From Nitrospira sp. (GTDB taxonomy: Bacteria; Nitrospirota; Nitrospiria; Nitrospirales; Nitrospiraceae): a DNA stretch of 64,000 bases. The position numbers were made by a program, and so were the translations under genes. Positions 276-41,238 of this stretch are shown here, in pieces. The stretch's first letter is position 1. Each line of letters opens with the position of its first letter. The notes beneath the pieces are model-generated. The model was not told where the DNA came from. It saw only the letters and a list, made by a program, of their open reading frames with translations, and made no database searches. The stretch lies in the NCBI GenBank assembly GCA_041742455.1, contig JBGSIO010000145.1:9335-73334 (forward strand). Direction: 5' to 3'.

Positions 276-1304
276 TTGATCGGGCATCGGCACGGCATGC
301 TTATGGACGCAGGGACCCATCTTCCCAGAGGGACTATCCTCTCCGCATCAAATGCAGCCTCGATTCGTCTGGCAGGCAGGATCATCAAAACGGGCGGGCT
401 TGTCGCGTTCCCAACGGAAACAGTCTATGGCCTTGGCTGTGATGCCATGAATCCAGAAGCAGCAGCGAAGGTCTTCGAGGCCAAACAACGTCCACAGTTT
501 GATCCGCTCATCGTGCATCTTGCTGATCGAACGCAATTGGATGCGGTTGTCGCATCACAGCCACCAATGGCTCAGAGACTCATGGATGAGTTCTGGCCTG
601 GCCCGCTCACGCTGGTCTTGCCAAAGCAATCCGTCGTCCCTGATCTCGTCACAGCCGGCTTATCGACGGTTGCAGTTCGAATGCCGAACCACCCCATAGC
701 GCAAGCTCTCATACGAGAAGCAGGCACCCCGATTGCCGCTCCCAGCGCCAATCTCTTCGGCTATGTCAGTCCCACGAATGCGCGCCATGTGTCGGAAAGC
801 CTTGGAAACAAAGTGGACATCATTCTCGACGGTGGGCCCTGCCAAGTTGGTGTAGAATCAACGATCGTCTCGCTGCTCGGCCCTCAACCAGAACTATTGC
901 GGCCCGGCAGTATCACCCTCGAACAACTCACCGCCGTGATCGGTCCAGTGCGTGACCTATCGTCGAACCATAATCATCCAATCGCTCCTGGTCAATTGAC
1001 GCGCCACTACGCAACGCTCACTCCCCTGACCATTCTCGCCTCTGTCGGGACCAGACCAGTCTTGAGACCTGACGAGCGTGCGGGCCTCCTGCTCATCTCC
1101 CAATCGAAAGAGAGGAAAAGCGGCTTTGCTGCTATTGAGGTCTTGTCCCCTGCCGGTGATATCCGAGAGGCAGCACGAAATCTCTTCGCCGGCCTTCGGA
1201 GGTTGGACTCTCTTGGTCTGGATCGAATCTATGCGGAACCTTGTCACGAAATGGGTCTGGGACTGGCAATCATGGATCGCCTGCGCCGCTGCGCGGCGCG
1301 CTGA
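276..1304 (+). CDS. tsaC: Threonylcarbamoyl-AMP synthase, Sua5-type (YrdC domain plus SUA5 C-terminal domain); true start may be a few codons downstream
   Basis: VAFPTETVYGLG, KQRPQFDPLIVH, AAPSAN and APGQLTRHYA motifs. Confidence 0.95.
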   Translation: MIGHRHGMLMDAGTHLPRGTILSASNAASIRLAGRIIKTGGLVAFPTETVYGLGCDAMNPEAAAKVFEAKQRPQFDPLIVHLADRTQLDAVVASQPPMAQRLMDEFWPGPLTLVLPKQSVVPDLVTAGLSTVAVRMPNHPIAQALIREAGTPIAAPSANLFGYVSPTNARHVSESLGNKVDIILDGGPCQVGVESTIVSLLGPQPELLRPGSITLEQLTAVIGPVRDLSSNHNHPIAPGQLTRHYATLTPLTILASVGTRPVLRPDERAGLLLISQSKERKSGFAAIEVLSPAGDIREAARNLFAGLRRLDSLGLDRIYAEPCHEMGLGLAIMDRLRRCAAR

Positions 1305-31176: not shown

Positions 31177-31205
31177 ATTATATGAAGGGGGTGCAGGAGA
31201 GTCAA
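31177..31205 (-). promoter_or_regulatory. Sigma70 promoter of the GlmL operon
   Basis: Minus strand TTGACT-N17-TATAAT. Confidence 0.75.
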
Positions 31206-31340
31206 TTCGATGGTGGAACCGGAAAACTGGTATCAAGGCCTAGCATCCCAGTACCCTTAAGCGTCACTGTGAAGTGGACGTAACAATCGAACGTCTTCAA
31301 ACGGTGATGACATAAGGCACACATTGGATTAAACTGGCCC

Positions 31341-31619
31341 ATGAAGCCGTTTCGTTGGAACCACGAGAAGAATGAACGACTGAAAGCTGAGCGAAATATT
31401 TCTTTCGAGGAAATCGTGCTTGCCATTGAAACCGATGGATTGCTCGATATTGTGGCGCACTCCAACCTCGGCAAATACCCTCGTCAACGAATGTTTGTCG
31501 TCGCGATCGAGCACTATGCCTACTTGGTTCCGTTCGTGGAAGAATCGGACCACTATTTCCTGAAAACGGTCATTCCGAACAGGAAGGCGACCCGTGACTA
31601 CTTGAAAGGTGGTGTGTAA
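31341..31619 (+). CDS. BrnT-like type II TA toxin
   Basis: FRWNHEKNERLKAERNISFEEIV...FLKTVIPNRKATRDYL; adjacent RHH gene. Confidence 0.75.
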   Translation: MKPFRWNHEKNERLKAERNISFEEIVLAIETDGLLDIVAHSNLGKYPRQRMFVVAIEHYAYLVPFVEESDHYFLKTVIPNRKATRDYLKGGV

Positions 31620-31946
31620 ATGAGAAAACATCGACCATCATATGAGGAAGAAATTGCCAAAGACTATGAAAAAGGCCGCTTCAAGTCCGTTGCTCCCTCA
31701 AAAGCCGAACTCAAGCGCTTTAAAGAAGCGGCCCGGGCGACGTTCATCAAAAACCGGAGAGTCAACGTGAGATTGTCCTCGCCCGATTTGATGGATATCC
31801 AGACTCGTGCTGCCGAAGAAGGGGTGCCGTACCAAACACTCATTGCCAGCGTACTACATAAGTTCGTGACAGGTCGATTCACGGAAAAATCATCGCGTCT
31901 CACAACGCGGTCGAGCGGGCGCGCCAAACGACGTCGTGCTGCCTAA
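31620..31946 (+). CDS. CopG/RHH antitoxin; C-terminus reads through an attC-like sequence
   Basis: RVNVRLSSPDLMDIQTRAAEEGVPYQTLIASVLHKF. Confidence 0.8.
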   Translation: MRKHRPSYEEEIAKDYEKGRFKSVAPSKAELKRFKEAARATFIKNRRVNVRLSSPDLMDIQTRAAEEGVPYQTLIASVLHKFVTGRFTEKSSRLTTRSSGRAKRRRAA

Positions 31947-31955
31947 GACTTAGGG
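31897..31955 (+). other. Eroded attC-like site
   Basis: GTCTCAC-AACGCGGTCGAGCGGGCGCGCC...CTTAGGG; each core box is one mismatch from RYYYAAC/GTTRRRY. Confidence 0.45.
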
Positions 31956-31970
31956 ACATCGAAAAGTCTG

Positions 31971-32238
31971 ATGGCCATGGGACTTATCACACCTAAGACC
32001 GTTGCTGAAAAGCTTGCCGCTCACCTGCAACATAAGCTATCGCTGGACAGCCTAGTGGCCTGGGCAGATTTGGCAATGATGGACGGCGAATTCGATCCAG
32101 CTCATCTCCCGACCATTCGCGACTGTGGCGAGAATCGGCGTCGCCGACGTAGGCGCATTCGACCTCACCTGGGAAGACTGCGAGCAACTCCTCACGCAGC
32201 TCGGCTCTTCCGCACAAGTCAGCATCGTCGCTCAGTAG
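31971..32238 (+). pseudogene. Frameshifted small hypothetical gene
   Basis: Frame 1 gives MAMGLITPKTVAEKLAAHL...PTIRD; a shifted frame continues VARIGVADVGAFDLTWEDCEQLLTQLG...AQ* to 32238; break near 32125. Confidence 0.7.
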
Positions 32239-32485
32239 CTGTCCGTCGAGGACTTCGACATGATGGTTCCGCTCTATGCAGCAGTAGATAGCGTTACTAT
32301 ACTCAGGTTGCTCAATCTCCTACTTCTCAATTCTTGCAAGAAAAAGTAGAATGGCGCAGTTTTAGCTGAGCGTCCGCGGTTTATCTGCCATCCTAAGTCG
32401 ATATAACGAAGGTGTACGAAGCTCATTTGATGTGCTGATCCACGTTCTAATCCATTAGCTTTGAAACCTTAGCGACGGTGATTCC

Positions 32486-35400
32486 TTGAACGACCAACAA
32501 GCACCTAGCCATGAACGCCACAAGGTGGTTCGACTTATCGATTATCTGACACGGCTGGCTCAGCTTCGCACGAAGTTGATTCGAGACATTGCTGAATATG
32601 AAAAGGTTATTTGGATATCAGATGTTCCCCAGGAGCGAGGTTGCTTCACGCAAGCATGGGGACGTGAGGAGGAACATGATCCGGACGAATGGCTAGAAGT
32701 GCAAGGCAGGCGCGAGCCGGAATTGCCAGCCGTCCCCTCTCAATGTAAAGACTGGGTAAAACTATCGGAGCTTCGCAACAAGAACGACTTGCCAGAACTC
32801 ATGCTTGAGATCACCCGAGAAATCCAGAATCCCGATTGGCGGGAAGGATCTGACCAACCCGAAACCATTCCGCATATCGAATTGCTCGGAGATCATCCAG
32901 AGGTGCGGCAAACGTGGGACCAGTATGTAGAAAACAAATGGTTCCCTTGGAGGGAACAACATAATTTGTGGGAAAGAGTTCAAAAGGTTTATTCCGCCCT
33001 TTTTGCCACCCATCAAGAACAACTTCGCTTGGGCGAGGAATATGAGCTTGTACTAGGTCTGGGTCTGCTGACATGGCAGACACCTACTGGACAGCGCGTC
33101 AGACGACACCTGGTTGTCGCCGATGCTTTCTTAAAGTCTGAAGCTCAGTTAGGCAAATTCACTGTCCATCCGCACACTGAAGGCGCCAAACTACGGCCAG
33201 AGCTCGATATGCTAGACATCGAAGAACAACCGGCACGAGCGGAAGAAACCGCGAAGGGCTCATTAGGCGATGCAGAAGATGATCCCTGGGATAGGCACTG
33301 TGTTGAAGGCGTTCTTCAAGCCCTAGTGCATTCGATCAATTCGCAAGGTGATTATAACGACTCATTGGAGGCAAAAACTATCCGTGCATTGCCAAAGCCC
33401 ATTGTAGAATATGCCCCTGCTTTGATCCTCCGAAAGCGTACCGCCAAAGGCCTCACTGAAACCCTGAAACGCATAAGGGAGCAGGTTGAGCGTGGTGAAG
33501 ACATCCCTGGCGAATTCGCAGATCTTGCAGAGATTAGTCCACAGGCTGATCACGAATCGACCAATGAGGCAGAAGAGATTAGGAATAAATTTGGTGGAGA
33601 TATTTTCTTCCCAAAACCATCGAATGACCAGCAACGGCGTATCGTCGACAAAATCCAATCATCAAGCGGTGTACTGGTGCAAGGTCCTCCCGGGACCGGA
33701 AAGTCTCATACCATTGCGAATCTTATCTGTCATTTGCTAGCAACTGGGAATCGCATACTTGTAACTGCAAAGACCCCAAGAGCCTTGCAGGTGCTTCTAG
33801 GTAAGAACGATGAGAAAAAACCACTCAAGGTAAACGCCCCATATAACGATAATCAGAAAGATTACGGCCATATTCCTGAAGAAATCAAGCCATTGTGTAT
33901 CAACTTGCTTGGCAGTGGGCAGGAAGAAAAGAAATCACTAAACGCGAGTGTCCTTGGCATACTTCGTAAAAACGAGGAGTGGAAACCAGACTCTGCTAGC
34001 CAGGAGCAGCAGAGTCTTGAAAAGCGCCTTGGGAAGCTTCGCGAGGAAAAGACAATAGTCAGCCGGCGCCTTCGCGATATTCGGGAGTCCGAGACCCACA
34101 CGCAATCGATCGCGGAAGGAGTTTATCGTGGGACGGCAGCCAGAATCGCTGAAGCCGTAAATCGCAACCGAGCTACCTATGAATGGTTCGTGGATTCCAT
34201 TCCCCTGGATAAGTCTTGCCAGACTTCCGCAAACGACCTGCGAAGCATGCTGGTGGCCCTTCGCCAATTCACGACGGAAAAGCGTAAGGAATTGGGGCTT
34301 GCATGGCCCGAGACGTTGCCATCCAACGAACGTTTTGCTGAACTGGTGAAGAGAGAAGCCAGTGCGGCAGAAGAAGAGCAGAACTTCAAAGACGGAGCTG
34401 ATGAACGCACTGCCGATCACCTCGCACAAAGCAGTTCGGCAACCATTGAGGCAATTCTTGAACCCCTGTGCACTTTTCGCGATGCTCGAAAGAGAATGCT
34501 AACAACATCGTATTCTTGGATAGGCGAGGCCGTTCGCGACATCCTGAGCGGCAATCCGACCCTATGGCAGGAACTTCACCGTGTCACGCAAGGCGTAATT
34601 TCATCAGTCGAGCGACTCATTGACACTGCGGATAACACTCACATCGAGTTCCCGAATACCCTCGATATCAGAATGCTTTACGAAGATGCTCGGCAACTGC
34701 AATACCACATGGAAAACGGAGGAAAATTGGGTTGGGGGATCTTTCGACCCAAATTAGTAAAAGAGCGAACTTATGTTATCGAGACTGTAACAATCGACGG
34801 ACGGGCATGCTTTACGGTCGAACATTTTTCAACTCTTGCCGATGTGCTGCATGTGCGCATTCAATGTGAGAAGGCATGGGGCTTCTGGGTAGGGAGGAGC
34901 GAGAGGGTTCCAGGGCCATATAGGCTACAACTGTCCGCCCTAAAATCACAGCGTGATGGACTCAAGCACGCCTTGTCACTCGAAGTGCATATTGCTAAAT
35001 GCCGGGAGGCTATCGGGCAATATCCAACGCTAGATCAGCCTCTATTCGTTGACGAATCCCAGATTGAGAGGATTATCTCCTCATGCCATCTAGCACTAGC
35101 TCGTACCCGTAAGCGGCTCGTCTCTGAAGAAATTCAATGTATTGAGACTCCTATTTCTCGCATGGCTGCCCAGGCCAATATACACCCCGTTGTAAATGAT
35201 GTGCTGACCGCGATTCGTAGCCGCAACGTGGATAGATTTGCTAAGAGTGTAAACGCAATTCAAGAACTGGAGCAAATGCGGCAGCGGCTTCAGAGGGCGG
35301 ATGAGGATTTTTTAAATCTGCGGCGTATTCTGCCACGCCTTGCAGATAGGCTTCAACGAACTTGTGGTAATCCAGTATGGGATGAAAGGGTCCAGCAGAT

Positions 35401-37414
35401 TGGTGATGCTTGGCATTGGGCTCAAGCAAGTCATTGGATTGAAGAGTATATCCGGAAGGAAGACGTTCCAGCGCTCGCCAAGCGAGCTAAACAGATCGAA
35501 GACGAAATAAACAGCGTTGTCGCGAAGCTCGCTGCACTTCATGCATGGGCATTCTGCTTTAAGCGACTGGAAGAGCCGCATCGCCGGCACCTGGAAGCGT
35601 GGCGCAAGCATGTCAATTCGCTGACTAAATCTGGCACAGGCACACGTGATTTTCGGAATCGTCAGGCGGCTCAGCGAAGCCTAAATCAATGTAAAGATGC
35701 CGTTCCAGCATGGGTGATGCCCTTGCACCGCGTTTGGGACACAGTGGATCCCAAACCAGGCATGTTCGACGTCATCATAGTTGATGAGGCTTCTCAGTGT
35801 GGATTTGAAGCATTGCCTCTCCTCTATCTGGGGAAAAAGATATTAGTCGTTGGAGATGATAAACAGATCAGTCCCAGTGGAGAGTTTCAAGATACGACGC
35901 CGATTAACAAGTTGATAGATGAATTTCTTTATGATTTCAATTTTAAACAATACTTCGATGTCAATGTAAGCCTTTTTGACCATGGGAAGCTTCGCTACGG
36001 AACAGGGCGTATCACACTGCTCGAACACTTCCGCTGCATGCCAGAAATCATCCGTTTCAGCAATGACCTTTGCTATTCGGATACGCCATTAATTCCCTTG
36101 AGGCAGTATGGGCCAAATCGGCTACCACCGCTGGAGCATGTTTTTGTGAACGGTGGGTATCGCGAAGGTTCAAACAGTCGAACAATCAATCGTCCCGAAG
36201 CCGAAGCTATTGTCGATAGAATCGTGGAAATGTGCTGCGACAGCCGATACGACAGTAAGTCGATGGGGGTAGTTGTTCTTCAGGGTGAGGCACAAGCGGC
36301 TTTGATTGAGAATCAGTTGCTTGAGAAACTGGGCGCTGAGGAAATGGAACGGCGGCGCCTGGTCTGCGGCAATTCCTACAGCTTCCAGGGAGATGAGCGG
36401 GATATCATGTTCCTGTCGCTCGTCGCGGCCAGCAACGAAAGAATTGGGGCTCTCACGAAGGCGGTGGACGAAAGGCGCTTCAATGTCGCGGCCAGCCGTG
36501 CTCGTGATCAGATGATTCTTTTCCATTCCGTCACTTGTAATGATCTCAGTTCGTCCTGCCTTCGACGACGATTGCTGGAATTCTTCGAGAATACGAAACC
36601 ACGGCAGATTGCCGGAATTGAGCGAAGTGAACTTGAGCGGCGGGCAGCACAGGACAATCGGCGCCTTGTGAACCCTCCCTCACCATTTGGCAGCTGGTTC
36701 GAAGTTGACGTTGCTCTTGAGCTTCTGCGCAAAGACTTCACGGTTCTTGCCCAGTACGAATTCGCCGGTAGGCGTATAGACCTTGTGGTTGAAGGTGGAC
36801 AAGCACGCTTGGCCGTAGAATGCGACGGAGACCATTGGCATGGAGCTGACCAGTACGAGGCCGATATGCAACGTCAGCGCGATCTGGAGCGATGCCAATG
36901 GGAATTCTTTCACGTAAGAGAAGCGGCGTTCTACGCCAACAAAGATAATGCCCTTTTAGGGTTATGGAGAGCGTTGGAAGAGCGCGATATTTTCCCGAAC
37001 TCTCAACGTGTGGACCCGGCCCGTGAAGACAATTTGGAAGATGTAGAAATGGGCACATCGGACACTGCTGCTACTGCAGATGACGATGGTGCGGAAAGCG
37101 ATCATGACCATTCATCCGACGGTTCGCCAAGTGACTTCATCGCATCAGGACGTCGGGTGGAAGAGATAACGGGGGTAGAAATACAAGATGCCATTCTCCA
37201 GGCTTTAACGAAGTGCCCGAATCACTCCTGCACCCTGCACTCTCTTGCCGCTCGTGCTCTAAAAGAGCTAGGCGTGTTGACGCGCGGAAAGCCTCGCGAG
37301 GTATTTGAAAAGCGAACCATGCAATCTGTCAGTATTCTCGAAAAACGTGGCCGAATAGAAACCTATAAGGCTAAGAATCGGAGGCTGAGACTGCTCCATC
37401 AAGAAACAGCCTAG
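32486..37414 (+). CDS. 1,642-aa Upf1-like SF1 helicase fused to a Vsr/MTES_1575-like PD-(D/E)xK nuclease and a C-terminal wHTH-like domain; candidate defence protein
   Basis: GPPGTGKS, DEASQ, VVGDDKQ, EHFRC, FQGDERD, RRFNVAASRA; RRIDLVV...LAVECDGDHWH. Confidence 0.9.
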   Translation: MNDQQAPSHERHKVVRLIDYLTRLAQLRTKLIRDIAEYEKVIWISDVPQERGCFTQAWGREEEHDPDEWLEVQGRREPELPAVPSQCKDWVKLSELRNKNDLPELMLEITREIQNPDWREGSDQPETIPHIELLGDHPEVRQTWDQYVENKWFPWREQHNLWERVQKVYSALFATHQEQLRLGEEYELVLGLGLLTWQTPTGQRVRRHLVVADAFLKSEAQLGKFTVHPHTEGAKLRPELDMLDIEEQPARAEETAKGSLGDAEDDPWDRHCVEGVLQALVHSINSQGDYNDSLEAKTIRALPKPIVEYAPALILRKRTAKGLTETLKRIREQVERGEDIPGEFADLAEISPQADHESTNEAEEIRNKFGGDIFFPKPSNDQQRRIVDKIQSSSGVLVQGPPGTGKSHTIANLICHLLATGNRILVTAKTPRALQVLLGKNDEKKPLKVNAPYNDNQKDYGHIPEEIKPLCINLLGSGQEEKKSLNASVLGILRKNEEWKPDSASQEQQSLEKRLGKLREEKTIVSRRLRDIRESETHTQSIAEGVYRGTAARIAEAVNRNRATYEWFVDSIPLDKSCQTSANDLRSMLVALRQFTTEKRKELGLAWPETLPSNERFAELVKREASAAEEEQNFKDGADERTADHLAQSSSATIEAILEPLCTFRDARKRMLTTSYSWIGEAVRDILSGNPTLWQELHRVTQGVISSVERLIDTADNTHIEFPNTLDIRMLYEDARQLQYHMENGGKLGWGIFRPKLVKERTYVIETVTIDGRACFTVEHFSTLADVLHVRIQCEKAWGFWVGRSERVPGPYRLQLSALKSQRDGLKHALSLEVHIAKCREAIGQYPTLDQPLFVDESQIERIISSCHLALARTRKRLVSEEIQCIETPISRMAAQANIHPVVNDVLTAIRSRNVDRFAKSVNAIQELEQMRQRLQRADEDFLNLRRILPRLADRLQRTCGNPVWDERVQQIGDAWHWAQASHWIEEYIRKEDVPALAKRAKQIEDEINSVVAKLAALHAWAFCFKRLEEPHRRHLEAWRKHVNSLTKSGTGTRDFRNRQAAQRSLNQCKDAVPAWVMPLHRVWDTVDPKPGMFDVIIVDEASQCGFEALPLLYLGKKILVVGDDKQISPSGEFQDTTPINKLIDEFLYDFNFKQYFDVNVSLFDHGKLRYGTGRITLLEHFRCMPEIIRFSNDLCYSDTPLIPLRQYGPNRLPPLEHVFVNGGYREGSNSRTINRPEAEAIVDRIVEMCCDSRYDSKSMGVVVLQGEAQAALIENQLLEKLGAEEMERRRLVCGNSYSFQGDERDIMFLSLVAASNERIGALTKAVDERRFNVAASRARDQMILFHSVTCNDLSSSCLRRRLLEFFENTKPRQIAGIERSELERRAAQDNRRLVNPPSPFGSWFEVDVALELLRKDFTVLAQYEFAGRRIDLVVEGGQARLAVECDGDHWHGADQYEADMQRQRDLERCQWEFFHVREAAFYANKDNALLGLWRALEERDIFPNSQRVDPAREDNLEDVEMGTSDTAATADDDGAESDHDHSSDGSPSDFIASGRRVEEITGVEIQDAILQALTKCPNHSCTLHSLAARALKELGVLTRGKPREVFEKRTMQSVSILEKRGRIETYKAKNRRLRLLHQETA

Positions 37415-37500
37415 CAATACGCGGGTTATGATGACTGACAACGAGTGGTCTCCTTTTTATCGACTTGAGCCAGCGCGATAATTGCGACAGAAGAGACGTC

Positions 37501-37761
37501 ATGGACAGAATCCCTTGTGTGACCAAAGCTAAATATCGAAGCGGCTTCAGGATTCATGTAACCTTCGATGACCATTCCGAGAAAACCATCGACTTTCGAC
37601 GCTATCTGAAGGGGCCGGTTTTTGAGCCGCTGAAAGACGTGAAGTACTTTCGGAGATTCTTCCTAGATGGCTGGACCGTCGCCTGGCCAAACGGTGCGGA
37701 CATTGCCCCCGAGGAACTATACGAGAGTGCCGACGTCGGTACGGAACGCGGGGCGGCTTAG
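37501..37761 (+). CDS. DUF2442-like protein (antitoxin-type); likely start 37501
   Basis: VTKAKYRSGFRIHVTFDD...GPVFEPLKD...F...TVAWPNGADIAPEELY. Confidence 0.8.
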   Translation: MDRIPCVTKAKYRSGFRIHVTFDDHSEKTIDFRRYLKGPVFEPLKDVKYFRRFFLDGWTVAWPNGADIAPEELYESADVGTERGAA

Positions 37762-37802
37762 TCTCAAGATCAGTACCAACGCCAACAATCGGTACACCTC
37801 AC

Positions 37803-38018
37803 ATGAACATACAGCCGCGAACAAAACTGATTCACGAAGGGCGATATTTGGCCGAAGTCGACGTTGAACTGTTAGTAACCGATGACGAGTGGTCTCCCTA
37901 CCTATCGGTCGAAGACGCCTATAAACTCGATGAGGTGCGTGAGGCGTTAAAAACCGGAGACACCACGACAGCAGCACGATACGGCCGTGTGTTCGCTCTG
38001 ACTCCGATTGCCGTCTAA
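37803..38018 (+). CDS. Small TA-associated (antitoxin-like) protein
   Basis: HEGRYLAEVDVEL...WSPYLSVEDAYKLDEVREAL; stop codon lies inside GTCTAAC. Confidence 0.7.
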   Translation: MNIQPRTKLIHEGRYLAEVDVELLVTDDEWSPYLSVEDAYKLDEVREALKTGDTTTAARYGRVFALTPIAV

Positions 38019-38080
38019 CCATTGTTCTGAGTGCAACCACGGAAGCGCCGTGAGCCCCTCGTCACCTCAACTCTGTAAAC
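38013..38080 (+). other. Eroded attC-like site
   Basis: Perfect RYYYAAC (GTCTAAC) over the stop codon; CTCAACTC L'-like remnant; no intact R'. Confidence 0.4.
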
Positions 38081-38273
38081 TCAGGCAGACTTCCTCTTAC
38101 TATGCTATCCATAATGATAGAGCTGCTTGATCCTTGCATGCGCGCCTTCAACCTCACGTGAGAAGATTGCAAACATCTCCTCTCCCAGTTCGGCTATTCT
38201 GCACAAGTCAGCAATAGCCGCAATGGAACTGTGCCGGGCGATATGGTATGCGGACGCGGCGCTATGGAGAGCG

Positions 38274-38364
38274 TTGACAAGTGATTAAACACGCGCAAGA
38301 ATCACTGACCAGTTTTTAGTTCGGCGGCGGGTAGTATGCAGGTCAGTATACTCAGTTGTTAGCC
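38274..38364 (+). other. Promoter plus attI-like module, copy 1
   Basis: TTGACA-N17-AAGAAT, then about 55 nt ending in GTTAGCC, 13 nt before the ATG; ungapped homology to 39461-39551. Confidence 0.55.
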
Positions 38365-38377
38365 CTCTGAGGCTCTA

Positions 38378-39355
38378 ATGTCTAAGCCGCTATTTGAAAT
38401 CGATATCTCACCCTCAGCTCAGTCAAGCCTAGAGGCTCATTCTCTCCTCGCGTCAGTTGACCCGAGTGCATGTCACCATCTGTGCTGCCAGCTACGCTTG
38501 CCACTCGGGATCTACAACCTCTCAGTTTCCCGCATCAGCGAGCGGCTCTTCTCGCTCTGCAAGCGTCTTGAGGAGTACTTCACGGCATCAGCTGACATTA
38601 ACACGCTTGGGAAAAAGCGGCAGCTTCGCACGGAGATCGTCGATTTCATGGAGCTTGCGATCTATGCAGCCGCAGAGCACGTCGATGATATCGATTCGAT
38701 CGCAAATGGTTTCTTCAGCCACGGGGAGTACGCTAAAAAGAATGCTGCGTATCGACACCTGAATACCAAGATTAAGGAACACAAACGTTACCTCTCCGCT
38801 ACTGCCAACGCCATCAAGCATAGTCAGGCAAGGTTACGACTCTACTCGTGTGAATTCCGACAGCCAGGAGTTCACAGTTGCCTTCACGGCTATTTCGTAG
38901 AGGGCGTAGAGTATGGTGTGGTAGGTCCCAACAAACTGCTTCACAAAGATCATGTCGTCTTCTCGGTAACTACCCTGGTCTGGGAGATCATTACCTTCGT
39001 CCTTCAGTGCTCCCGAGACCTGAAGGTCTTTCTCTCCTCGCGAGCGGCACTCCTGCCCAACATCGTGGAAGCATCTTCCGACCGATTCACGAAGGCTGTC
39101 AGTTCTGCGGCAAGGCTTCCCCTATATAGCTTTGGCGAGGAGCATCCGTTCTCCCGTTCAACAGTTAAGATACAGGCATCGAGCAACGAAGCTTCTGATC
39201 TGGACTCAAAGCTATACGGATCGCTCAAGACCCCATGGGCAGTCTCTGCACCGCCGGTCTTTGGCCCTGATCGATCCGAATTCGATGGGGACGGCTGTTC
39301 ACATCAGTTCCGCATTGTTCAACCGAAGAATATTTCGTTTCATCATTGGCAGTGA
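38378..39355 (+). CDS. Hypothetical cassette-like protein (325 aa), possibly HEPN-related
   Basis: Bounded by GTTAGCC (38358) and GCCTAAC (39359); helical, with a NAIKH motif. Confidence 0.7.
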   Translation: MSKPLFEIDISPSAQSSLEAHSLLASVDPSACHHLCCQLRLPLGIYNLSVSRISERLFSLCKRLEEYFTASADINTLGKKRQLRTEIVDFMELAIYAAAEHVDDIDSIANGFFSHGEYAKKNAAYRHLNTKIKEHKRYLSATANAIKHSQARLRLYSCEFRQPGVHSCLHGYFVEGVEYGVVGPNKLLHKDHVVFSVTTLVWEIITFVLQCSRDLKVFLSSRAALLPNIVEASSDRFTKAVSSAARLPLYSFGEEHPFSRSTVKIQASSNEASDLDSKLYGSLKTPWAVSAPPVFGPDRSEFDGDGCSHQFRIVQPKNISFHHWQ

Positions 39356-39386
39356 GAGGCCTAACTTCCGCATGTGGCAAAATGAT

Positions 39387-39457
39387 GTCAGAGTGTCGTT
39401 GTGTTCGCGGACACCAAAATCACCAGAGCGGTTCTCTCGAAATTGCACTCTGACCCC
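39387..39457. repeat. 71-bp inverted-repeat element (REP/MITE-like), copy 1
   Basis: GTCAGAGTG...AAATTGCACTCTGACCCC; same length as and homologous to 40241-40311. Confidence 0.75.
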
Positions 39458-39460
39458 AAT

Positions 39461-39551
39461 TTCACAAGTTATTGAGCGCGCGCAACAATCGTTCGCCAGT
39501 CTTCGGTTGATCGGCGTGTATTATGCTGGTCAGTGTACTCAATAGCTATGA
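39461..39551 (+). other. Promoter plus attI-like module, copy 2
   Basis: TTCACA-N17-AACAAT; ends in GCTATGA(G), complementary bar one base to CTCATAAC at the end of the following ORF. Confidence 0.55.
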
Positions 39552-40057
39552 GGGTCACCGGAAGGAACAGTGATTCCGTGAAACTTCGCCAAGCACCACG
39601 GTTCCATGCGTACTTCCGTCGTCTCGAAGGCCGCGAGGTGATGGTTATGTCCCGCCATGACTGGGAGCAGGCGAGCCGGCTTCGCGAACTCGAGATGGCC
39701 CAAATCGACTTGAAACCGACGCCGATCGCTGGCGTGGCCGAAGTCAGCCAGATCGAAGCTGCGGTTGTCGTGCGAAAGTCGCCCATTGAGGTCGTCGTTG
39801 AGATTTACCGATACGATGCAGTCGACCTTCCTCTACCGATCAATTTGGATCGGTACCTGGTATGGGAAACCTTGCCACCTCATCGGAATTTCGTCACGAT
39901 GGTGAATGCGGCGTCAACAGAGGACAATGCCAACATGCAAGGCTTCTTAGATGATCATGTGTTTTTCATCAAGGACGTTGTACGAGCCGGCCACCACTTG
40001 GCCGATCTGCCTGAACACGTCAAGGCATTCATGCGTCGCGACGATGCGGCCTCATAA
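39548..40057 (+). CDS. Hypothetical cassette protein; ATG lies inside the core site
   Basis: ORF track 39533-40057; stop codon inside CTCATAAC. Confidence 0.7.
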   Translation: MRVTGRNSDSVKLRQAPRFHAYFRRLEGREVMVMSRHDWEQASRLRELEMAQIDLKPTPIAGVAEVSQIEAAVVVRKSPIEVVVEIYRYDAVDLPLPINLDRYLVWETLPPHRNFVTMVNAASTEDNANMQGFLDDHVFFIKDVVRAGHHLADLPEHVKAFMRRDDAAS

Positions 40058-40100
40058 CTTCGCGGGCGGGCTTCGCGCCCCTTTCACCGTGGCGTTAGTC
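40052..40100 (+). other. attC-like site, internally shortened
   Basis: TCATAAC-TTCGCGG-GCGGGCTTCGCGCCC-CTT-TCACCGTGGC-GTTAGTC with a central GGGC/GCCC hairpin. Confidence 0.6.
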
Positions 40101-40121
40101 GTAATGATGTAAAGAATCACC

Positions 40122-40238
40122 CTGGCAAATGCTGAGGCAACTGTAGAAGAACTGGTCGGACTGATCGAGCGAGGAGAGCTGCGCTTACCAGAAATGCAGC
40201 ACCGCTACGTGTGGCGATCCACAAGTGTAGAAAAATGA
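40122..40238 (+). pseudogene. N-terminal remnant of a DUF262 (GmrSD-family) gene
   Basis: Reads LANAEATVEELVGLIERGELRLPEMQHRYVWRST then stops at the second 71-bp element; CTG in place of a start codon. Confidence 0.75.
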
Positions 40239-40240
40239 GG

Positions 40241-40311
40241 GTCAGAGTGTCATTGTGTTCTCAGACGCCCTAATTACATGAGCGACGTTCTGAAAATTGC
40301 ACTCTGAACTC
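40241..40311. repeat. 71-bp inverted-repeat element, copy 2
   Basis: GGGTCAGAGTGTCATTGTGTTC...AAATTGCACTCTGA. Confidence 0.75.
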
Positions 40312-40349
40312 AAAACGTGACCTGATCGGAACTCCAGACTACTCCTATC

Positions 40350-41012
40350 ATGATTGATGACCTCAAAAAGCTAATTGATCGCTCTGTTGAACTACTCGAA
40401 GAAGTTCAAAGAATTGAGTCAGGTCGCAATAAAAAAGAGGTGTCTCAGTTTGAAGTTAACAACCTCGCCTCCCGCGGTATGAATTTGATCCAATCCGTTG
40501 TCGGTCCGAAGTCGGTTTACTATGAGAATCTGCGTAACGCGCTGAAACAGAAGTGGACCGTCAGCCAATACATGGCAGTATCAGGTGTCCTTCAAGCGTT
40601 CCACCTGGACCTCGCAAAAGGCCACCTCGTAAATATTCGCCATGAAGTGGAAGCTGTGGTGGTCTCGGAAATCCTTACCCAGGCAAGAAAACTATCCAAG
40701 ACAAAGGGAGTTCATCCAGCCGCGGCAGTAATAGTAGCCTGCGCGGGTGTCGAGGAATTTTTACGCAACTGGTGTGAAGAAAAGTCCATCGTTATCACTG
40801 AGAAACAACGATCCATTGCCAAGTTTGCCTCTGAACTTCGAAGCAATGGCCATATCGAATTACCTGTAGAGCGAAGAATTTCGTCTTGGGCTGATTACCG
40901 CAACGATGCCGCCCATGGTGCTGATTGGCAGAAGATCACTCAAGAAATCGCCAACCGCGTAATTCGTGAAATCGAGGAGTTCATTCTTGAGAACCGAAAG
41001 ATTCTAGGCTAA
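40350..41012 (+). CDS. HEPN-motif protein (candidate RNase effector)
   Basis: C-terminal ...EEFLRNW...YRNDAAHG (Rx4H) in a helical context. Confidence 0.7.
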   Translation: MIDDLKKLIDRSVELLEEVQRIESGRNKKEVSQFEVNNLASRGMNLIQSVVGPKSVYYENLRNALKQKWTVSQYMAVSGVLQAFHLDLAKGHLVNIRHEVEAVVVSEILTQARKLSKTKGVHPAAAVIVACAGVEEFLRNWCEEKSIVITEKQRSIAKFASELRSNGHIELPVERRISSWADYRNDAAHGADWQKITQEIANRVIREIEEFILENRKILG

Positions 41013-41238
41013 GCGCCAAATACCCAACCGATTATTCCTCCTGACATTGCACACAAAGGATCACAGGCCGCTGAAACTAAGCCGAGCCTCGAGGTTTGCG
41101 GTGGGAGAAAGCAGAGGATCAGCAGCGCTGTAGGTCTTCACTTGCTTCCCACTTTCAAACACAAAGGGAGCAGTCAGGTTGTCGTTCTCATTCAGTGGAA
41201 TACGATGGGCAGACGTGGGCGTTTCACGAGCACTTGGA

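Follow-up and report, generated by a model that had tools for sequence, protein, structure and literature searches.

A repeated promoter-bearing module of Nitrospira is probably the attI site of sedentary chromosomal integrons, left without its integrase

Two copies of a module of about 145 nt stand in front of two open reading frames (ORFs) in a 64,000-nt stretch of DNA from Nitrospira sp. (assembly GCA_041742455.1, contig JBGSIO010000145.1, positions 9,335 to 73,334 of the forward strand), which we refer to as the window. Comparison of this module with its relatives in other genomes indicates, with a probability that we put at roughly 0.8, that it is the attachment site (attI), together with a promoter of the cassette-promoter (Pc) type, of the sedentary chromosomal integrons of Nitrospira, and that the window copies are orphan relics whose integrase gene, intI, has been lost. 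At the level of sequence, the comparison shows the module beside intI, a sharp junction at its downstream end, and a core at that junction that matches the cassette's own attC site. A first-pass annotation of the window, made from the letters alone, had guessed at duplicated attI-like sites carrying different cassettes. That guess was largely right; the element adds another instance to a system already known and is not of a new kind.

The repeat was first seen as two stretches, 38277–38364 and 39464–39551, said to be identical at 63 of 88 positions without gaps. An ungapped comparison returned exactly this figure, and the runner-up 88-mer match on either strand of the window reaches 40/88. The module is longer than the 88-nt repeat (~145 nt here, ~140 nt in intact relatives): the upstream window copy, copy a, extends ~55 nt further 5′, to ~38218, and the extra ~55 nt of upstream similarity is present in three of the four copies of this genome. 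A profile built from the two window copies (nhmmer) added the other two members of this set, at C97:2385–2236, directly 5′ of a 300-aa DUF5677 ORF, and at C7:27533–27388, 5′ of a 102-aa ORF. BLAST detected the module in 12 of 24 further genomes belonging to this genus and in 0 of 16 that represent five other genera in the order. A degenerate pattern search of one genome per species (185,579 species) yielded 39 loci, 33 of which are true modules as judged by nhmmer, nearly all of them labelled Nitrospira, Nitrospiraceae or Nitrospirota; the other six are about as many as the roughly seven chance matches that we estimate from the information content of the pattern. Removal of duplicates left 47 distinct copies, in Nitrospira and Nitrospiraceae genomes. 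It had been proposed at the outset to look for different cassettes behind other copies, and for a copy abutting intI in relatives. Both were found: the genes 3′ of the module differ in all four copies of this genome and in all 47 overall, and intI lies next to the module in the relatives described below.

In relatives the module is found beside an integrase gene. We searched for IntI with the model TIGR02249 at a cut-off of 265 bits. At locus L110 (genome G152, contig C21), an intact 459-aa IntI (L110:1096–2475; 440 bits against TIGR02249) with the canonical R/HxxR/H/Y motifs (GLRLMECCRLRV, HTLRHSFATHLL, LGHTDVRTTMIYTHV) ends in a TAA stop codon, after which come the module, ending ...ACTCAATAG|TTAGGT, a 236-aa ORF and an attC site (ACCTAAC...GTTAGGC). 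At L091 a full-length IntI ORF (384.7 bits), in which the second catalytic arginine is replaced by Q, is followed by the module, by one cassette and by a perfect attC (GGCTAAC...GTTAGCC) that folds with −20.9 kcal/mol (z = −3.9). It follows from these two layouts that the module takes up all of the space from the intI stop codon to the cassette junction. As seen in L110, L091, L059 and L062, intI is transcribed toward the module on the same strand, and the module thus lies 3′ of intI. Upstream of the 47 copies we found one full-length intI ORF (that of L091), one full-length but frameshifted intI, 13 partial 3′ remnants of the gene, a small gene that we call X in four cases, and nothing recognisable in ~23. 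The 13 partial remnants, which include the one at the C7 copy of the present genome, run unbroken into the module; homology continues without a break into the 3′ end of intI in 15 copies, and a full-length intI is still linked to two or three of the 47. A reading of the TTGACAAGTGATTGA block as the C-terminus of IntI (...LTSD*) was wrong, the intI stop codon lying ~58 nt further upstream.

The mark of an integron platform is an integrase gene next to the site, coding for a tyrosine recombinase that has the IntI-specific insertion and passes the TIGR02249 cut-off; such a gene is found in these relatives (L110, L091) and is missing from the window and from the genome to which the window belongs. 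That no integrase lies nearby had been noted before; by tblastn the window contains neither intI nor a remnant of it. Our TIGR02249 search of this 95.75%-complete genome found no intact intI, only XerC/D-like recombinases and, at C7:27555–27881, a stop-ridden intI remnant of ~60 codons (model positions 216–315) immediately upstream of the C7 module on the same strand.

The IntI proteins of Nitrospira measure 427–459 aa and share a conserved N-terminal extension of ~105 aa (…IRIRPGE.GRLIV..PY.PE.VAKIKT..GR.WH…W.VP…), present at L110:1096–2475, L091:2390–3673 (minus strand) and L059:5335–6636 (minus strand). The extension has no Pfam match, and Foldseek returned no PDB match with E<0.5 for an AlphaFold single-sequence model of low confidence (predicted local distance difference test score, pLDDT, 58.8). 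A second IntI lineage (G051 type, ~55% identical) is accompanied by a different attI at L081:~760–960 (minus strand), which has three direct repeats GGNCYTATACGGAA and the end ATACATA|GTTAGGT, and which the module profile missed.

The downstream end of the module is where cassettes would join. When copies are aligned on the core, mean pairwise identity is 0.76–0.83 at positions −20 to −1, the bases at +3 to +6 are RRRY-like, and identity is 0.25, the level of chance, from +7. GTT is invariant across 33 cleanly aligned copies and similarity is lost within 7 nt, at GTTRRRY; the cores observed include GTTAGCC, GTTAGGC, GTTGGGC and GTTAGAC. A drop in identity at GTTRRRY is the pattern expected if cassettes join at G|TT, each bringing its own TTRRRY. 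In 11 of 36 copies the first gene downstream closes with an attC whose R″ is exactly the reverse complement of the 7-mer core of that copy, with a GTTRRRY partner 55–143 nt beyond, as against 2.1 cases expected from a control in which cores were swapped among copies. The end-to-end complementarity that the first-pass annotation had taken for the signature of cassettes inserted by IntI thus holds up statistically in the family as a whole. The C97 copy of the present genome provides an example, having the core GTTAGCC and then GGCTAAC right after its ORF. By comparison, then, the module has the features that define an attI: it starts at the intI stop codon, its GTT is invariant, and its core is complementary to R″.

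Upstream of the core, TTGACA is present in 42 of the 47 copies and AAGAAT in 39, a 17-nt spacer separates the two in 41, and the distance from the end of the −10 box to the G of the core is always 55 ± 2 nt. An 18-nt block beside the core, ACTATGCCGGTCAGTATA, at ~−26, is repeated in direct orientation at ~−130, where the distal repeat is ACTATGCCGGTCTGTATA; the two repeats can also be written ACTATGCCGGTCWGTATA. Of 28 full-length copies, 16 have this direct repeat at a significant level. The most conserved stretch of the module is ACTCAAT-A-GTTAGGC, in which we read ACTCAAT as an L-like box next to the R box. We infer that the repeats are putative binding sites for IntI and that the promoter would drive expression of the first cassette. 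In intact members of this integron lineage the order of elements is intI transcribed toward the cassettes, distal repeat, TTGACA-N17-AAGAAT facing the cassettes, proximal repeat, L-like box ACTCAAT and R box G|TTRRRY, the last being the site at which IntI would join incoming cassettes.

The features of the window that bear on this reading are as follows, the functional assignments being predictions.

31341–32240, plus strand: head of the gene island that holds both modules, with a weak BrnT-like match (31341–31619), a weak CopG-type antitoxin match (31620–31946) and a frameshifted gene X (31971–32240).
38142–38213, plus strand: what is left of the 3′ end of gene X, a pseudogene carrying an in-frame stop; it makes up the left flank of module a.
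38218–38364, plus strand: module a, putative full-length orphan attI with promoter (nhmmer model positions 5–154, E = 2.8e-43).
38274–38302, plus strand: putative Pc-type promoter of module a, TTGACA (38274–38279), N17, AAGAAT (38297–38302); consensus scan 10/12.
38358–38364, plus strand: putative attI core (R box) of module a, GTTAGCC, with the crossover point G|TT as the start of cassette 1.
38378–39355, plus strand: ORF of cassette 1, 325 aa, conserved hypothetical protein.
39359–39378, plus strand: 5′ stub (R″–L″) of the attC of cassette 1, with R″ GCCTAAC at 39359–39365.
39379–39462, no strand assigned: D2a, a small inverted-repeat element resembling a miniature inverted-repeat transposable element; it breaks up the attC of cassette 1 and borders on module b at the −35 box.
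39461–39551, plus strand: module b, putative 5′-truncated, decayed attI (ΔattI; nhmmer model positions 30–152, E = 1.4e-24).
39641–40057, plus strand: ORF of cassette 2, 138 aa when read from an ATG that has GAGG before it; the longest frame opens with a GTG at 39533, inside module b.
40051–40100, plus strand: degenerate attC candidate of cassette 2, R″-like CTCATAAC (40051–40058) and R′-like GTTAGTC (40094–40100).
40231–40316, no strand assigned: D2b, the second of the two inverted-repeat elements, 5′ of a HEPN-like ORF (40350–41012).

The alignment of module a with the intI-linked copies begins at their intI stop codon, and module a is the counterpart of all of the spacer that intact relatives have between this codon and the crossover. 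The distal repeat of module a is degenerate (~38228–38247) and its proximal repeat lies at ~38332–38350. The sigma70-like pairs that had been reported for both copies are real, but they begin 3 nt upstream of the aligned block, at 38274–38302 and 39461–39489. Both the promoter and the GTT core of copy a are perfect. Copy a would be an orphan attI in complete form, with the 325-aa ORFan as its cassette, and could still accept cassettes if an IntI arrived. The core lies 13 nt before the ATG at 38378, and the GCCTAAC box, which begins 4 nt past the stop codon of the ORF, has a complement one base off GTTAGCC. We found no Pfam or NCBIfam match for the 325-aa ORF and 0 homologues in 133 other Nitrospira genomes; elsewhere the protein has 217 homologues, an uncharacterised family scattered across Burkholderiales and Nitrospirota. 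One of these, 71% identical and encoded on metagenome contig L108, lies directly after a GTTAGAC core and has post-stop sequence in common with the window, showing that cassette 1 keeps its boundaries in an independent setting. The attC stub of cassette 1 is homologous to this post-stop sequence of L108 up to the point at which D2a starts.

The second window copy is damaged. The −35 box of module b, TTCACA (39461–39466), comes partly from the end of D2a and is separated by N17 from the −10 box AACAAT (39484–39489); module b is the sole copy of 47 with TTCACA. Its distal half is missing and its core is mutated to GCTATGA (39545–39551). The earlier description of a GTTRRRY-like core at the end of both copies thus fits GTTAGCC of copy a but not copy b, whose GCTATGA(G) is no true GTT core. 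Copy b would be a ΔattI, truncated and mutated, with a 138-aa ORFan as its cassette, and the 138-aa ORF belongs to no known family and has 0 homologues in the same 133 genomes. At its end, CTCATAAC (40051–40058) overlaps the TAA stop codon, and its complement is one base off GCTATGAG, the core of module b in the form GCTATGA(G) (39545–39552). Both of the boxes on which the complementarity of core and ORF end had been claimed for the window are therefore there, each one base short of perfect. The candidate at 40051–40100 lacks an attC-like fold (z = +0.95) and its arm-duplex energy is within background. The window modules probably still act as promoters.

The two window copies share 67–72% identity. 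The nearest relative of copy a is a copy in another Nitrospira metagenome-assembled genome (MAG; locus L010), at 82% identity, and copy b is the most diverged copy of the family, with a median identity to the others of 63%. Because copy a is 82% identical to L010 and 67–72% identical to copy b, the window copies did not arise by a recent duplication. Local tandem duplication was rejected as their origin, since copy a and copy b both have closer matches among the copies of other genomes.

Since the genome has no intact intI and no attC in the island around the two modules is foldable, both are most probably fossil integron platforms, and the damage to copy b, together with the decay of the attC sites, further favours relics. 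The first-pass annotation had left the choice between relics and landing pads serviced in trans; relics fit this genome better, and servicing in trans, not favoured here, has support in relatives. At L083:283–2566 there are two units, each made up of an inverted-repeat element, ΔintI and attI, that are 97.8% identical and have the same intI truncation point. Their first cassettes are different and each has a perfect R″ (GTTAGAC/GTCTAAC and GTTCGGC/GCCGAAC), and therefore IntI acted after intI had been truncated. Some Nitrospira genomes contain two or three IntI genes (G152), which makes servicing in trans plausible in the genus; X-linked truncated modules at an orthologous locus of four species have different genes downstream; and ~40 of the 47 copies retain the GTT core and the promoter. 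That the orphan modules are live landing pads, kept by selection and serviced by an IntI whose gene lies at another place in the cell or comes in by transfer, so that cassettes go on being captured with no intI linked to the site, nevertheless seems to us unlikely, though far from negligible: an intact intI is absent both from this genome and from the L083 MAG, the attC sites of the window are decayed, copy b has a GCT core and no distal half, and the window copies are old, being 67–72% identical and each nearer to copies of other species. Several points weigh against the reading that we prefer all the same. The ~23 copies without a detectable intI remnant keep the promoter and the core well, and such conservation could reflect continuing selection, and hence use, and not decay. 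The attC evidence in the window is weak, amounting to R″-like boxes at the stop codons that depart from the core by one base each. The recurrent link to gene X and the tandem ΔintI–attI units are not explained by simple deletion of intI. Promoter activity and IntI binding are predictions from sequence, and in a draft of 145 contigs an intI may have been overlooked.

Other readings of the module find less room. If it were merely a duplicated promoter or operator for a shared regulator, with no role in recombination, the conserved TTGACA-N17-AAGAAT would be accounted for and the two 18-nt direct repeats could be operator sites. Left unexplained, however, would be the homology to the 3′ end of intI in 15 copies, the loss of similarity at GTTRRRY and the complementarity of core and R″, and we hold this to be very improbable. 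Slightly less probable still is that the module is a genus-specific repeat of the attC type, like the Vibrio cholerae repeats (VCRs) of Vibrio, or a structured RNA or leader between cassettes. Its recurrence between plus-strand ORFs in a cassette-like island and the GTTRRRY-like core at its end would suit either. RNAalifold, on the other hand, found no consensus structure on either strand among 39 copies (mean single-sequence z = −0.14), no Rfam family matches at or above its gathering score anywhere in the window, the internal repeats are direct and not inverted, and true attC sites in the same arrays are 55–140-nt hairpins unrelated in sequence to the module. On the absence of a conserved fold we ruled out that the module is a leader RNA, a small RNA or an attC-like element; this absence fits a double-stranded attI and not attC. 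A bolder extension of the landing-pad idea is that Nitrospira has 'distributed' integrons, in which free-standing attI–promoter sites for capture and expression are selected and used in trans by any IntI that is present, ΔintI–attI segments are moved like cassettes by attI × attC recombination, and the repeats serve as arm-type sites for the lineage-specific N-terminal extension of IntI. We consider this doubtful and put it forward tentatively; if it is true, attI × attC moves would build tandem attI arrays such as those of the window, L083 and L094. For the two copies in the window, we continue to prefer orphaned attI sites that have outlived their integrase.

Separately, L094:380–2490 contains three tandem ΔintI–attI units with different cassettes, two of them preceded by a GTTRGGG core. 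On the evidence of these cores, it is as if the ΔintI–attI segments had been inserted like cassettes.

Both window modules lie in a 10-kb island (~31.3–41.1 kb) in which all genes are on the plus strand and which is flanked by minus-strand core genes. The order from the left is BrnT-like match, CopG-type antitoxin match, X, a gene for a 1642-aa superfamily 1 (SF1) helicase-nuclease, a gene for a DUF2442 protein with a 71-aa partner, and the X remnant, and then module a, the 325-aa ORF, the attC stub, D2a, module b, the 138-aa ORF, the attC candidate, D2b and the HEPN-like ORF. The BrnT-like and CopG-type matches are weak, both falling under the Pfam cut-offs. A decayed integron array explains an island composed of toxin–antitoxin, defence-like and ORFan genes. 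The left 1.5 kb (flank, BrnT, BrnA and X) is 82.6% identical over 1471 nt to an orthologous Nitrospira locus (L012/L072), at which X is followed by a recognisable module. A degenerate third module at ~32300–32465, upstream of the helicase gene, is possible: a MAFFT alignment is suggestive and there is a promoter-like TTCTCA-N17-TAGAAT at 32324–32352. We report it only as possible because nhmmer gives no match there even at E≤10. The helicase gene itself, at 32486–37414, encodes an SF1 helicase (AAA_11/AAA_12) that carries an MTES_1575 nuclease domain at its C-terminus, and possibly stands behind this very degenerate module.

A strict scan of the island for R″/R′ pairs by minimum free energy gave nothing convincing in intergenic regions, and in DNA folding the attC candidates at 40048–40104 and 38009–38096 fold no better than shuffled sequence. 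Clusters of attC sites lacking integrases (CALINs) are recognised by at least two attC sites with no nearby intI; a crude AAC...GTT arm-duplex scan of 31200–41200 placed 0 intergenic candidates above background. At the left border of the island (~31215–31240), the flank is common to four Nitrospira species as far as ...GGAGAGTCAATTCGATGGYGGAACC, right after which they diverge, and no GTTRRRY core is present at this border. At ~40148–40222 there is a short frame (…LIERGELRLPEMQHRYVWRST) that, by eye, resembles the N-terminus of a DUF262-type protein intact in the L083 array, and that is probably a gene fragment.

The X remnant that flanks module a is 82% identical over 72 nt to 32153–32224, where the fuller copy of X (31971–32240) has its 3′ end, and the X protein of a relative matches it over aa 59–83, in an alignment (tblastn) that ends 5 nt before module a. 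In several species, X (87 aa) lies directly upstream of a 5′-truncated module (L012:1173–1436, L016:1171–1434 and L027:~1263–1460). It follows different cassettes there, each ending in an R″-like YCTAAC box 11–30 nt before X. Gene X may itself be a cassette of the ΔattI type. It matches no Pfam or NCBIfam family at the curated cut-off; one of two homologues has a sub-threshold zf-HC2 match over 20 residues.

The D2 element is 84 nt long, with 17-nt terminal inverted repeats AAAWTGRKGTCAGAGTG; its copy number is low, and the cases seen are in or beside integron arrays. The terminal inverted repeats of D2a are AAAATGATGTCAGAGTG and CACTCTGACCCCAATTT and fold as a hairpin, and D2a forms a 73-nt direct repeat with 40241–40313. 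There is a third full copy in this genome at C57:14273–14377 and a further one at L013:1341–1424, upstream of a module. A related element in L083, L091 and L110 (GGGGTCGGGA...TCCCGACCCC) has the same inner sequence, GTCATTGT..., and arms with compensatory changes. D2 was considered as an attC and rejected, since it has terminal inverted repeats and no R″/R′ boxes.

Integrons, attI, Pc and CALINs are established concepts (PMC4889954). The attI site has been called 'poorly described outside class 1', and IntegronFinder seeks attI only for class 1 (PMC9024848). Experimentally defined attI sites exist for only a few integron classes. The only integron elements earlier reported in Nitrospira are two CALINs in Ca. 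N. inopinata (PMC9024848). Judged by sequence comparison, the module described here is a newly delimited attI of an environmental integron lineage, that of the nitrifying Nitrospira, most of whose copies are orphans and whose anatomy emerges from comparison. Most attI copies in the genus have outlived their integrase, and at least one relative (L083) gained cassettes after its own intI had died. The set of copies provides sequences with which to ask whether orphan attI sites are pads serviced in trans, how Pc is organised when intI faces the cassettes, and what role the N-terminal domain of IntI plays.

A known attI, attI1 of class 1 integrons, has an R box GTTRRRY, an L box, DR1 and DR2 as direct repeats, and the promoters Pc and P2 nearby (PMC12901181, PMC4889954). 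Like attI1, the Nitrospira module is a putative primary site beside intI with a G|TT crossover in a GTTRRRY R box, an imperfect L-like box, two direct repeats, and a predicted promoter reading into the first cassette. Unlike attI1, to which it has no sequence similarity, it measures ~140 nt against 65, has 18-nt repeats set ~104 nt apart with the promoter between them, and is situated 3′ of intI and not at its 5′ end; binding of IntI to it is a prediction. A parallel to the window is offered by ΔattI-type cassettes of mobile integrons, in which a truncated but recombination-proficient attI lies inside an array (Partridge 2009; Gonzales Machuca et al. 2026, PMC12901181), so that internal or truncated attI sites in arrays are less unusual than the first-pass annotation had supposed. 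The arrangement attI–ORF–ΔattI corresponds to module a, the 325-aa ORF and module b, with ΔattI where attC would be expected. The window differs in having an attC stub and an inverted-repeat element before the ΔattI, a mutated core, and a sedentary array without an integrase. With CALINs the island shares the character of a cassette-type island without a neighbouring intI; whereas CALINs by definition have at least two attC sites, the island has no convincingly foldable attC and yet keeps its attI modules. The atypical order of genes, finally, is that of the integrons of the Treponema denticola type, whose intI reads toward attI and the cassettes (PMC3607928), intI, attI and cassettes all being on one strand. 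The Nitrospira integrons differ from these in phylum (Nitrospirota), and their IntI has the ~105-aa N-terminal extension, which is absent from VchIntIA (2A3V). Whereas the attI of Treponema was guessed from a GTTAGGT box, that of Nitrospira is delimited by 47 copies.

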